The notes: generated from the sequence alone by a model not told the origin. DNA of 44,384 bases from an uncultured Erysipelotrichaceae bacterium (GCA_902782835.1 CACZOQ010000113.1:1-44384), one strand, 5' to 3'; counted from the first letter of the stretch, positions 28,530-33,765 are shown. Numbers and translations are program-made.

Positions 28530-31500
28530 ATGAAGAAGAATAGTAAAGGGTTTACACTCGTTGAATTGTTAGCTGCAATTGTTATATTAGGCATTATAGC
28601 GTTATTTGCTTTACCAGCTATCGTTAATATGGTTAGTAAGAGTCGGAATAAAATGTATATTACAGATGCTGAAAAAATGGTTGCTTTGACGGAATATAAG
28701 TTAAAAGCTAGTAATTCTGTTATCGAAATTCCAGATGAGGGAGACTGTATTGTTGTTAGTATGGTTTATTTGGATTCTTCTGATTTTGATACGGCTCCTA
28801 ATGATGGAAAATATCAAAAAGAAAAGTCTTTTGTTGTTGTTAAAAATGTAGGTGGTAGTTTAGACTATTCTGTTATGATTGTTGAAAAAACGAAAAAAAG
28901 AGATCTTAGAGGGTTGGAACTAACGAATAGTAAGGATTTAGAAAAAAGATCTACGACAGGTAGAATTACTACTTTTAAGAAGACTGATTTAGTAGAAGAT
29001 ATTGAATCTATGGATAAATCTTATATTAATACACACTTAGATTCTAATTATATTGAAAATGGTAATACTGTTTCTGCTATTTATAATTATCCAGATTTGG
29101 TAGATAGTTCTTCTGGTTTGGATGAAGATGCTGCTCCTAGAATTAAATCTGTTTATGCTGATTCTACGAATCCAAACTTTAATACTTTGACGGTATTATT
29201 AAAAGTTAGTGCAGAAGATACAGATACGCTTCGTAAAGATTTAACGGTTTATATTTCTACAAAAGGTTATAAGCAAGAAGCAACTTCCTATATTTATGAA
29301 TCAGTTAGTTATGGTACTGCTCAAACATTTACTAAAACCTTTAATTTAGCAAATTATTTATGTACTGATGGGGCTTTATGTTCTTATTCAAGAGATAATA
29401 AGATTGTATTCTATGTTGTGGTAGCTGATCCACAAGGCAATGAAGACCGTAAACAAGTAACATATGAAATTCATAAAAATAATCCTCCAGAAATTGATGC
29501 TTCTGCAACAACTATTGGAAAACGTCCTGTAGATCCAAAAGAAATGACAACTGCGTATGTTCGTTTTGGAGTTTCAGATGATATTACACCAGTAAGAGAA
29601 TTGCAAGTTTGTTTAGAAGAATCTACTTCATCTACGCCAGCAACATCTTGTGATAATTATCAGGATTATTTCTCTGTATTTGATGATAATCATTCACTAG
29701 AATATCAATTCATGTGTGATGGAAGTGGATGTCGAAGAGATGGATCTACTCATTATTTGAATATATTTGTTAAAGATGCGCATGGTTCAACTGCTTCTAC
29801 TATATTAAAATATACATTCTCTACAAATGTAAAACCTTCCTTTACTGAAAATGTTGTTGTTGTTTCTAAAACGGAAACATTTACTGATACAGGAAGCCGT
29901 AGAGTTATTGTAAAAGTACGTGCAAGTGATGATGTGGATGCGGAAGATCAAATATCTGTTTCAATCTCGGATGGAACTATTACAAATGAATATATGTATA
30001 GTGATAACTTAAATAATGATGATTTTGATTTTGATATTGATCCTACAAAAGAATTGATTTATGACGGTTCTAAAAAAACAATTACTGTTACACTGACTGA
30101 TACTGAGGGATTAACGAATACTCAAAACGTTGAATATACTTTGTATAAAAATAAAAAACCAACTGTTAGCAATTTAAGTATTTATTCAAATGGTACAGCA
30201 TGTCCAAATGCAAACTTATGTCCAACTGAATCTGGTGGTAGTAAAGAATATTTATATAGTTTTGAAGTAGAAGATGATATTGATCGAGCTAATCATTATT
30301 CTCCTGTTCGAGTTGCAGTTTCAACAAATGCAGATGATTGTAATGATGATAGTAATTATACATCTTATTCGGATTACTATGATGGTATTCATTCGGGAAC
30401 ATTGACTGGTTCTTATGATGGAAGAACGGAAACATTATATGTATGTGCTAAGGATACATATGGATTAACTAATAGTTCTTCTGCCAATTATACTATTTAT
30501 CAGAATCAAGCTCCTATTATTCAAGCATTTAATATTCAGTCTCAAGAAGAAGAGTTTTTAACAGGGGAAAATGGTGGAAGTTTAAATACAATATTAGAAA
30601 TCTCTGCTATCGATGACTTTGATGAATCACCTGCTATCTCTGTTAATTTGAAAGAAGACGGGACTGCTCAAATTACTGGAGATACCATGAATACTTATGA
30701 AGGACAAAGTGTAGAATATACACTTCATGGTCGATATGATGGAAAAAATCGTAAACTGGATCTTACGTTAACAGATCAAGATGCTGCTTCTAGTTCACAA
30801 ACTGTTAATTATACAGTTTATAAAAATCTTGCTCCTACTATTGAATTATTTGTTACTGATCCTCCAGAACCTGCTTGTGAAAATTTAGATTTATGTCCAA
30901 CTAGTAATGGTGGAAAATATCAAACAGAATATTGGTATAGCGTTGAAGATGATTTGGATTATGCTGATAATTTTTCAGGCGTTAAAGTTTGCTTTACTGA
31001 AAATCCAAGTACTTGTAAGAATTCCGATGGTACTTTTAAAACAAGTGCATTTACTTCTTATTCTGATGTTTATGATCCAGAAACGAATTATTCAAGAGTG
31101 ATGAATTATACTTTTTCAGTAAACGCTGAGAAACCATATGAAAATGTTAACCGTGATCGTACTTTATATTTATATGCAATGGATTCCTATGATGAAAGTG
31201 CTACTACTTCTGTTGCTTATAAAATTTATACAAATAGCGGGCCTGTTTTAGGAGCTCCTTCTGTACTTTCAGCAATGGCTGGTACTTCTGGAGTAGATGA
31301 TCCAATTGTTACAGGTTCTAGTGGTTCTACTACTATCGGCCAAGCAGGAGCGGGAGTTGTTCTTAAAAAGGTTGGCGATGGTGACGATGATGATACTTCT
31401 GGAGATGATCTTCCTGGAGATCCTGTAGATGAAGATTATTTGAACATTATGGATGTTTTCTTCTCAATTGAAGCTGTAGATGATTTTGAAGAGCAAGAGT

Positions 31501-33198: not shown

Positions 33199-33765
33199 AT
33201 GGATTCTAAAAAAATTGCTTTTGGAATTATGACATTAAGTTTTATTTTTATTATGTCTGGTGCTGTTTCTTCTTTTGTTCTTGGTTTAAAACAAGATCAT
33301 GAAGAAACTCTTAGTCGTGTTGCTGAAGTAAATAATGAATATGAAACGTTTAGTACGAATACAAGTGCTTTTGAAGAATTCCGTGAAAACTTATATACAG
33401 ATGTTTTTTCTAGTGTTTATTATGATACGATGTATGATGAAGATCCTACCGTAAAGAATTCTTTATCTAATTATGAACATTTAGTAGATGAACTTACTAA
33501 AAACACTTATCAATTGAATCATTTATGTAAAGATGTATATTATCCAGATAGTACTGTTAATAGTAAATGTAGTAATTACAAAAGTATCTATGAACAGGTT
33601 ATTAATTATTTTGTATCAGATATTCAAGTATATAATCAGATTGTTCAAAAATATAATGATTATCAAAAGGAATTGGGGACTTTATTGCGACTTCAAGAAT
33701 ATACAACGAAAAAGAATTTTATTGATTATAATAATGATAAAGTTTATGATGGTAAAGAGGAATAA
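33199..33765 (+). CDS. small membrane-anchored protein with a helical Tyr/Asn-rich ectodomain
   Basis: RBS TAGGTGG. N-terminal TM (IAFGIMTLSFIFIMSGAVSSFVLG). No known motif. Confidence 0.55.
   Translation: MDSKKIAFGIMTLSFIFIMSGAVSSFVLGLKQDHEETLSRVAEVNNEYETFSTNTSAFEEFRENLYTDVFSSVYYDTMYDEDPTVKNSLSNYEHLVDELTKNTYQLNHLCKDVYYPDSTVNSKCSNYKSIYEQVINYFVSDIQVYNQIVQKYNDYQKELGTLLRLQEYTTKKNFIDYNNDKVYDGKEE

Follow-up and report, generated by a model that had tools for sequence, protein, structure and literature searches.

A giant modular type IV pilin-like protein encoded in an envelope-glycan operon of an uncultured Erysipelotrichaceae bacterium

The locus described here raises the question of what a type IV pilin signal does at the head of a 1341-aa protein whose gene stands among envelope-glycan genes. 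The gene (28530..32555) is located on a contig of an uncultured low-GC, gut-type Erysipelotrichaceae bacterium (GCA_902782835.1, CACZOQ010000113.1:1-44384), whose whole stretch of 44,384 nt is referred to below as the window; features are on the plus strand unless stated otherwise. The open reading frame (ORF) was called from an ATG start codon with AGGAGG, a ribosome-binding site, 8 nt upstream. The mature product was computed to have 1334 aa, a mass of 148.8 kDa and an isoelectric point (pI) of 4.29, and its only hydrophobic segment is N-terminal. In all features that could be tested, the giant protein belongs to the type IV pilin family.

The class III signal peptide (28530..28613) consists of the 7-aa leader MKKNSKG followed by the hydrophobic alpha1N segment. 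The predicted cleavage after Gly7 and before Phe8 divides the N-terminus into MKKNSKG and FTLVELLAAIVILGIIALFALP, and the processed, methylated N-terminus is predicted to be the peptide me-FTLVELLAAIVILG. The 1341-aa reading frame with a KG/FTLVE signal, reported in an initial annotation made from the sequence alone, was borne out by two models scoring above cutoff: PF07963 (N_methyl) matched residues 2-28 with an E value of 2.9e-8 and 33.4 bits (cutoff 21.2), and TIGR02532 scored 27.6 bits (cutoff 16.3). The residues Glu+5, Gly+14 and Pro+22 are present in alpha1N. Searches of Pfam, NCBIfam and PDB sequences gave no match to the protein beyond these N-terminal pilin models.

In a full-length homolog search, 97 clusters at 90% identity were found, with lengths of 870-2116 aa and 24-43% identity to the query. 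PF07963 was carried by 96 of the 97, two of them having also LysM or DUF285, while one was without a Pfam match on record. Phe+1, Thr+2, Glu+5 and Pro+22 were invariant in all 97 homologs and Gly+14 was kept in 84, the leaders being 5-10 aa long. Since all the homologous clusters retain the same N-terminus, the pilin signal is not a matter of chance. The head was the best conserved part (34-58% identity to the homologs), followed by the modules (24-54%) and the tip (24-43%); conservation of the head is expected if it must fit conserved partners. Pfam scans of 30 family members resulted in N_methyl only, with nothing for modules or tip.

The pilin head module comprises aa 1-189 (28530..29096). 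Two confident AlphaFold2 models, of aa 1-545 and aa 952-1341, were obtained from alignments of the family with 51 and 60 sequences. The mean predicted local distance difference test score (pLDDT) of the first model was 89.6, with values of 75-97 across aa 11-180. The modelled head contains an alpha1 helix (aa 10-59), the strands 73-77, 101-107, 110-120 and 126-133, and small helices; as predicted, an antiparallel beta-sheet head with a helix of ~50 residues packed against it is the architecture of a pilin. A profile hidden Markov model (HMM) was built from 97 family members using only the globular part of the head (aa 45-195, alpha1N excluded). It matched normal-size pilins of other metagenome-assembled genome (MAG) loci of low GC content, namely those of L004 (186 aa, E 5e-15), L006 (188 aa, E 4e-13) and L005 (199 aa, E 3.5e-10), and in the last case the match covered residues 52-198 of 199. 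Because a model without alpha1N matches complete pilins of 186-199 aa, the first ~190 aa correspond to a whole standalone pilin, and the initial description of a pilin-like head of about 190 aa stands. No solved pilin was matched by sequence further along, as the family profile matched PDB sequences in alpha1N only. A homolog search with the head alone (aa 41-201; 28650-29132) examined 13 candidates and gave 0 matches, where the full-length query had found 97, which looks like a limit of the word index.

The head is joined to the stalk by a flexible linker (29097..29129), disordered at aa 190-199 (pLDDT <50) and with coordinates reaching aa 200. The stalk was divided into eight modules (aa 201-320, 321-436, 437-544, 545-662, 663-769, 770-905, 976-1060 and 1061-1158), the boundaries being drawn at a module-end motif. 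Modules M1-M6 (29130..31244) were assigned as beta-sandwich domains from the motif, AlphaFold2, alignment and Foldseek, and M7 and M8 (31455..32003) from AlphaFold2, Foldseek and module alignment. The motif Y-x-[ILV]-[YH]-x-N-x-x-P occurs at aa 312, 536, 654, 761 and 897, and in looser form at aa 428 (YTFSTNVKP) and 1052 (YTVYQDVSP), with spacings of 107-155 aa. At least seven tandem modules, each closed by this motif, had been proposed initially; the tandem arrangement holds, but the number is eight, as M8 aligns with the other modules although it lacks the terminal motif. The two Cys loops mentioned there were located at aa 558 (M4) and 783 (M6) in the form C-x-N-x-x-L-C-P-T.

Six of the eight modules were related to each other at significant BLASTP E values (M4-M6, 6e-18; M3-M5, 9e-11; M3-M4, 5e-9; M4-M7, 2e-7; M2-M4, 5e-4). 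M1 and M8 were too diverged for pairwise significance and were assigned via alignment and predicted fold. A ..DD.D.. loop, YDG, ..D..G and Y-x-I-Y-x-N-x-x-P were common to all eight aligned modules. No long DNA repeats were found in the gene, only motif-level echoes; the modules are thus old and not a recombination cassette, and an origin by recent duplication or cassette recombination was ruled out.

The question whether the modules are Ig-like or cadherin-like was answered by structure prediction with an Ig/cadherin-like beta-sandwich repeat fold. The closest PDB matches of the stalk modules in Foldseek spanned E values of 7e-10 to 3e-5. They were SiiE (2yn5, E 6.9e-10) and MpIBP (4p99, E 8.4e-9), both on the M1-M6 side, 5irb and the Aeromonas structures 6xi1/6xi3, followed by protocadherins, cadherins and FN3 arrays. 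The C-terminal model matched the RTX-adhesin extender repeats of 6xi1 and cadherin EC1-2, and a viral structure library (BFVD) gave generic Ig, FN3 and PKD matches only. The queries were multi-domain models in which tandem Ig-like modules dominate the match lists, and head and tip were not matched on their own. In seven of the eight modules 2-4 Asp residues are conserved in at least 90% of the family (mean column identity 26%); M1-M5 have 2-4 each, and M6 has no Asp at this threshold. The modules thus combine fold similarity to Ca2+-binding BIg extenders (2yn5, 4p99) with Asp conservation in 7/8, and the conserved acidic residues and low pI suggest stalk linkers stiffened by Ca2+. Assuming ~4 nm per domain, the stalk length is estimated at roughly 35-45 nm.

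A Gly/Ser/Asp-rich hinge (aa 906-975, 31245..31454) separates M6 from M7 and includes GDGDDDDTSGDDLPGD at aa 949; pLDDT was <50 at aa 952-969. The Gly/Asp linker of the initial annotation is thus present, though it was found in this ortholog only, and the segment is considered peculiar to it because no homolog matches there. The stalk ends in a Cys-rich beta domain (aa 1159-1341, 32004..32552), the presumed displayed tip. The initially noted Cys-rich C-terminal domain was accordingly recovered as a separate beta domain formed by the last 183 aa, with six Cys. The mean pLDDT of the C-terminal model was 91.1, mostly >94 in the tip domain. The two models and the Foldseek matches agree with the stalk-like architecture and distinct terminal domain that had been proposed. 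The tip domain had no Pfam or PDB sequence match, and an exhaustive phmmer search against 1.84 billion representatives gave 39 matches. Nearly all of these are short fragments or the C-terminal ends of proteins of family size, and three are multi-stretch repeat matches. With only these 39 matches, no relatives of the domain were detectable beyond the family, and it may serve as a binding module.

As the head is a complete pilin, the giant protein falls under the definition of a modular pilin, that is, a pilin module, a linker and modules not belonging to the pilus (Raynaud et al. 2021, PMC8179133); here these are the head, the linker at aa 190-199, and eight Ig/cadherin-like modules with a terminal domain. 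Modular pilins with grafted adhesive modules have been established experimentally in Streptococcus sanguinis and are widespread in silico, where more than 1,200 were counted in 264 architectures, Ig-like and FN3 modules being among the commonest (PMC8179133). The initial annotation had held that the modular pilins known in S. sanguinis carry a single extra module, which is true for PilB and PilC but not of modular pilins generally, as the catalogued multi-domain pilins include an 860-aa Candidatus Falkowbacteria protein with 12 IPR013211 repeats (PMC8179133). Since multi-domain modular pilins have already been catalogued, the kind is known and the giant pilin is extreme, not unprecedented in kind.

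PilB (vWA) and PilC (lectin) of S. sanguinis (PMC8179133, PMC9934059) are like the giant pilin in their class III signal with Glu5, small complete pilin module, short linker, grafted module and monoderm host, and their grafted module confers adhesion. They have, however, one extra module (PilB is ~50 kDa) and sit in a pil locus with ATPase, platform protein and PilD, whereas the giant pilin, at 149 kDa, has nine extra domains, which Pfam leaves uncovered, and is encoded in a glycan operon with no machinery nearby. The Falkowbacteria protein and the He_PIG/FN3 pilins (PMC8179133) likewise join a pilin N-terminus to several repeat modules and are known from sequence only; the giant family is longer (870-2116 aa) and has its own Cys-rich end domain. 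The T4b minor pilins CofB and TcpB and the competence pilin ComZ, which are tip-located initiators or adapters (PMC8179133), are also large and have extra beta-rich domains after the pilin module, but these are one or two in number, the genes lie in pilus operons, and sequence similarity to the giant pilin was not detected beyond alpha1N.

SiiE (2yn5), MpIBP region II (4p99, 5irb) and the Aeromonas RTX adhesin (6xi1, 6xi3) share with the giant pilin acidic tandem beta-sandwich extenders and a distal binding region far from the cell. They are, in contrast, type 1 secretion substrates of diderms with C-terminal RTX repeats and an N-terminal outer-membrane retention module, whereas the giant pilin has a pilin N-terminus and a monoderm-type context. 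The motif GGxGxD was absent from the giant pilin, and none of the 97 homologs had at least 3 copies. Membership in the RTX/type 1-secreted giant adhesins was therefore rejected, and the resemblance lies in how the protein may work. Three further assignments were rejected. Pfam Cadherin had no match in the giant pilin, one of the 30 homologs matched Cadherin_3 at E 0.0058, and the module-end motif is without the acidic residues of the cadherin Ca2+ motifs DxNDN and DxD. For a Com minor pilin or ComGC equivalog, the scores were 25 bits for ComGE (cutoff 49) and 17 bits for ComGC (cutoff 75), both at the N-terminus only, with no comGA or comGB nearby. A sortase-anchored LPXTG protein would not fit, since the giant pilin has no LPxTG-like motif, LPxTG is missing from the last 60 aa in all 97 homologs, and the hydrophobic segment is N-terminal only.

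What is new is the scale (149 kDa, and up to 2116 aa in the family), the eight extender modules with a family-specific tip and the position of the modules outside Pfam. Fixation in an envelope-glycan operon is new as well, together with an apparent enrichment of large orphan pilin-headed proteins in low-GC loci. As the modules escape current Pfam models, a survey based on domain signatures would probably miss the family, and no description of such giant pilin-headed proteins was found in literature searches. Type IV filaments are a major means of adhesion. Modular pilins are the current explanation for their versatility, and the experimentally studied examples have one module only. The giant pilin joins a pilin to a layout of stalk and tip that is otherwise known from giant type 1-secreted adhesins, and it tests what size of cargo can be carried through a monoderm envelope by a type IV filament or by a pilin anchor.

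The reading which is tentatively preferred, although it falls somewhat short of being probable, is that the giant pilin is a long-reach, filament-borne, non-capping adhesin, present in a tip complex or as a sparse shaft subunit, with its machinery and peptidase encoded elsewhere. The precursor would be inserted into the membrane via alpha1N, and a prepilin peptidase encoded elsewhere would cut after Gly7 and methylate Phe8. Com-like or type IV pilus filament machinery, also encoded elsewhere, would then incorporate the pilin module, which would dock beneath another pilin, either within the tip complex without capping it or sparsely along the shaft. Ca2+ would probably be bound by the acidic residues of the modules and stiffen the stalk, which would carry the fast-evolving tip beyond the wall and glycan layer, where the tip would bind its ligand. 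The presumed co-transcription with glycosyltransferase and phosphodiester-glycosidase genes suggests that the giant pilin is either glycosylated or works with the surface polymer of the operon.

The assembly of type IV filaments involves Glu5 as well as melting of alpha1N around Pro22. The partner of Glu5 is the N-terminal amine of the next subunit up, and the subunit capping a tip complex is typically without Glu5 (Pelicic 2023, PMC10191384). The invariant Glu+5 and Pro+22 and the best-conserved head therefore argue indirectly for a module that docks in a filament beneath another pilin. Remotely encoded machinery is plausible because vertical inheritance of comG systems has been reported for Erysipelotrichales and related Bacillota (PMC12786226).

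The search for machinery relied in part on a comparison set of 80 pilin loci retrieved with the pattern KGFTL[VI]ELL, mostly of unrelated pilins and with no full-length family member. Pfam scans of the 37 non-antisense window ORFs of at least 100 aa revealed no T2SSE, T2SSF or Peptidase_A24, and ATPase, PilC and PilD HMMs, built from the machinery genes of other loci in the comparison set, gave nothing better than E 0.1 in the window. These HMMs readily detected machinery beside the pilin genes of Patescibacteria, Proteobacteria, Actinobacteria and Paenibacillus loci; the negative result is therefore meaningful for the window and the nine orthologous loci. The initial statement that the window contains no pilus machinery was thus confirmed and could be extended to those loci. 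Machinery was found neither near the most distant family members nor near the short-pilin relatives.

Several of the observations weigh against a filament-borne adhesin. Over the window and the nine orthologous loci (within 10 kb of the gene, 226 kb in total), the best machinery HMM match had an E value of 0.087. There is no second pilin gene in the 44-kb window, and the giant pilin gene is housed in an envelope-glycan operon, not in a pilus operon. The normal-size pilin genes of low-GC loci are likewise unlinked from machinery, and the lineage may therefore use pilins unconventionally. Finally, we know of no tested precedent for a subunit of 149 kDa passing the wall on a thin filament.

The distribution of prepilins in the comparison set is relevant to this point. 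Of the 46 loci with GC <36%, most are MAGs carrying the label Bacilli, Bacillales, Tenericutes or Clostridium sp. In these 46 loci, a length of at least 300 aa past the cleavage site was reached by 31 of 71 prepilin-type ORFs, and machinery was adjacent in 2 of the 46, both Patescibacteria. The corresponding values for the 34 higher-GC loci were 1 of 69 ORFs and 17 of 34 loci; the loci had been chosen by similarity to the query N-terminus and the GC grouping is crude. The large orphan prepilin-headed ORFs of low-GC MAG loci include five tandem paralogs of ~685 aa in L014 (5602-16363), two of ~787 aa in L016, one of 1027 aa in L012 and one of 1240 aa in L047. The window organism's close relative L086 encodes two pilins with Flg_new repeats, 917 and 778 aa long, at 2148-4901. 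No type IV filament machinery was detected within 10 kb of the large ORFs of these five loci. The giant family thus points to a group of gut-type Bacillota MAGs in which orphan proteins with a pilin head and of large size are frequent, and these are likely attachment determinants of organisms not yet cultured.

The strongest rival, which is nevertheless considered rather unlikely, is a membrane-anchored stalk, cleaved by prepilin peptidase and never polymerised, in which alpha1N would act as the anchor and the stalk would span the wall and glycan layer to display the tip, forming a fibril held by a pilin anchor with no need of a pilus. It would account for the lack of machinery near the gene in all ten loci (the window and nine others), although this absence covers only 10 kb around the gene, and for the operon partners, which are all envelope-glycan enzymes or membrane-anchored proteins. 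The large prepilin-type ORFs unlinked from machinery in low-GC loci suggest a lineage-wide use of pilin N-termini, and the estimated stalk length is similar to the usual thickness of a monoderm wall with its polymer. Archaeal non-filament proteins also carry class III signals. Among them are the sugar-binding proteins of the Sulfolobus 'bindosome', large surface proteins with a pilin-type signal and genes away from the assembly genes; these are archaeal and without a globular pilin head, whereas the giant pilin keeps a complete pilin module. It is this module that an anchor hardly explains, as a plain transmembrane helix would be enough and neither the invariance of Glu+5 and Pro+22 in 97/97 homologs nor the conserved globular head would be needed. 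Moreover, Pfam Sortase matches near the short pilins of two loci (weak in L091, unmarked in L092) indicate that conventional anchoring seems available in those bacteria.

The second rival starts from the neighbouring genes. The upstream block of glycosyltransferase genes (26052..28514), recognised by Pfam, NCBIfam and conserved synteny, encodes a GT4 protein (26052-27200; PF00534, E 5e-45), a PssD/Alg14-like protein (27184-27666; NF041549, 166 bits, cutoff 110) and a PssE/GT28-C protein with a membrane domain (27654-28514; NF041548, 146 bits, cutoff 120). These genes overlap, and the last ends 15 nt before the giant pilin gene. Directly downstream lies the gene of a 166-aa N-terminally anchored protein with a conserved HCLDxICI motif (32561..33061), supported by synteny over nine loci; a gene of similar size stands at this position, directly after the pilin gene, in 9/9 loci. 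The flanks had been described initially as glycosyltransferases and small anchored proteins, which is correct except for the first downstream start, now placed at 32561 instead of 32570. The 166-aa protein was tried as a hidden prepilin or a partner common to other large prepilins and rejected, as it is not a prepilin and is homologous within the family only. It is followed by a 188-aa membrane-anchored helical protein (33199..33765), a conserved operon member with no family match above cutoff.

The remaining downstream members with a hairpin (33768..38359), identified by Pfam and synteny, are a NAGPA phosphodiester glycosidase (33768-34790; PF09992), a membrane protein combining a T4SS_pilin-like N-terminus with a GDS(L)-type C-terminus (34812-35825), a 455-aa anchored protein (35889-37256) and a second NAGPA (37253-38341; PF09992). 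The E values of PF09992 on the two NAGPA genes were 4e-42 and 4e-38. The only convincing plus-strand terminator-like hairpin in the cluster (38336-38359, terminator scan) follows the last gene; as such sites are no commoner than in shuffled sequence, it is suggestive only. The operon genes of the window overlap or stand 2-137 nt apart. In all nine orthologous loci, including members with 24-29% identity, the same co-directional array was observed: GT4, PssD, PssE (GT28-C with a GtrA-type membrane domain), pilin, small anchored protein, 188-aa protein, NAGPA, T4SS_pilin-like membrane protein, anchored protein of ~455-550 aa and second NAGPA. The exception is L086, which is without the GT4 and T4SS_pilin-like genes. 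Pilin display and the synthesis of a surface polymer may be connected through this strict association with glycan genes.

It is improbable, more so than the anchored stalk, that the giant pilin is a scaffold or carrier of this glycan operon, for example a heavily glycosylated coat protein whose pilin N-terminus is an inherited export device and whose function is not adhesion. Such a role would be consistent with a gene order in which the same nine genes strictly accompany the pilin down to 24-29% identity, the tight gene spacing with the sole convincing terminator-like hairpin after the last gene, and a Ser/Thr-rich protein (124 S, 128 T) with 15 N-x-S/T sequons. However, Pfam and NCBIfam scans of the operon revealed neither an oligosaccharyltransferase gene nor one resembling an O-antigen ligase, the gene order may merely reflect the close relatedness of genomes whose neighbouring genes are 47-87% identical, and the disulfide-rich tip at the far end of the stalk resembles a binding device.

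A filament rises roughly 1 nm per subunit, and no precedent is known for a 130-kDa appendage on each of its subunits. The giant pilin is very improbable as a major subunit that forms a homopolymer through the pilin module and projects the stalks radially like a bottle-brush: Glu+5, Gly+14 and Pro+22 are typical of major T4a pilins, the linker after the head is flexible, a shaft location is not ruled out by Raynaud et al. given such a linker (PMC8179133), and five tandem ~685-aa prepilin paralogs exist in L014, but the 130-kDa appendages would be crowded sterically, the gene is single-copy with no minor pilins nearby, and the bulky modular pilins studied so far are of low abundance and tip-associated (PMC8179133, PMC10191384).

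A broader proposal, speculative and held to be doubtful, is that the pilin module serves as a general display device for large, scattered adhesin genes in low-GC gut-type Bacillota, of which the 1341-aa protein would be the most elaborate example. The large proteins would be alternative tips on one remote filament system, or they would be anchored in the membrane without filaments; the latter, if true, would give bacteria an equivalent of the way in which archaea use class III signals.

The giant pilin of the window was 27-37% identical to those of five orthologous loci, and the neighbour genes of the same loci, as far as they aligned over most of their length, were 47-87% identical. The identities were 74-79% for the methyltransferase, 74-79% for RluA, 65-76% for GT4, 66-87% for PssD, 47-72% for PssE, 75-84% for the two NAGPA genes, 61-68% for the 188-aa protein and 51-58% for the 455-aa protein. 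The 166-aa downstream protein, which diverges almost as fast as the pilin, was 28-44% identical, and the 337-aa membrane protein aligned over the N-terminal 130 aa only, with 40-45% identity. The fast divergence of the giant pilin fits surface exposure under diversifying pressure and, combined with a constrained N-terminal module, appears as the signature of a surface-exposed, fast-diversifying protein. The rapid change of the distal parts is also suggestive of a role of the grafted modules in a filament-mediated function such as adhesion.

In L006 (6252-11243), a more distant relative (methyltransferase 62% and RluA 59% identical), pilins of 188 and 192 aa were observed at the position of the glycosyltransferases and the giant pilin. 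The pair directly follows a block of methyltransferase, pseudouridine synthase and Pro/Ala-rich membrane protein, and in the window the same block precedes the glycosyltransferase genes. Because the short pilins sit after this same block, the arrangement suggests an origin of the giant gene by C-terminal accretion to an ordinary pilin gene which stood here. The short pilins of L006 are followed by genes resembling a conjugative type IV secretion system.

Paired short pilins (186-243 aa) with homology to the head of the giant pilin were observed in L090 (10001-11288), L091 (10001-11414), L092 (3408-4774), L004 and L005. The setting in L090 and L091 is thrS, dnaG, rpoD, trmK, a 415-449-aa protein, the pilin pair, PBP, rpmG, efp and ftsK; the downstream half of this housekeeping neighbourhood is also found in L092 and the upstream half in L004 and L005. 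The comG operon has been reported to adjoin efp in Erysipelotrichales (PMC12786226). The pairs might be remnants of a comG operon; comGA and comGB are absent beside them.

Two membrane proteins of the window, encoded at 19255-20322 (minus strand) and at 34812-35825 in the pilin operon, are paralogous, with a common T4SS_pilin-like (PF18895) two-helix N-terminus and different C-terminal domains, Peptidase_C39_2 in the former and an FVGDS (SGNH/GDSL-like) region in the latter. The gene at 34812-35825 is fixed in the pilin operon in 8/9 orthologous loci. Upstream of the glycosyltransferase genes, a 339-aa membrane-anchored protein (24970-25989) consists almost wholly of Pro/Ala/Val/Glu repeats and forms a local GC peak of 0.386 against ~0.29. 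A counterpart of 275-388 aa was present in every locus reaching this position, with only ~35 aa alignable.

A second, unrelated surface-structure cluster was located at 649-19243. It contains three paralogs of the SipW/archaeal-type signal peptidase I (649-1980, 10302-11039 and 17027-17878), a 2751-aa protein with Gly/Asn-rich 'VYGG' repeats and no Pfam match (1995-10250), and five small signal-anchored proteins (11077, 11728, 12351, 17887 and 18656, minus strand) which have no family match and resemble TasA/camelysin-type SipW substrates. At 14384-17061 an McrB-like AAA protein (NF008457, E 5.5e-6, well below cutoff) is followed by a DUF2357 protein (PF09823, E 9.5e-13), probably a McrBC-type restriction pair that interrupts the SipW cluster halfway. 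A DUF2357 gene was also observed upstream of the pilin operon of L088. Neither regulatory RNA nor tRNA was found in the window. Its end (40499-44349) encodes a solute-binding/VWA fusion, a protein of the 5-bromo-4-chloroindolyl phosphate hydrolysis family, a 400-aa protein without family match and a truncated TelA-like gene, a block which is conserved in L086 and partly in L011.

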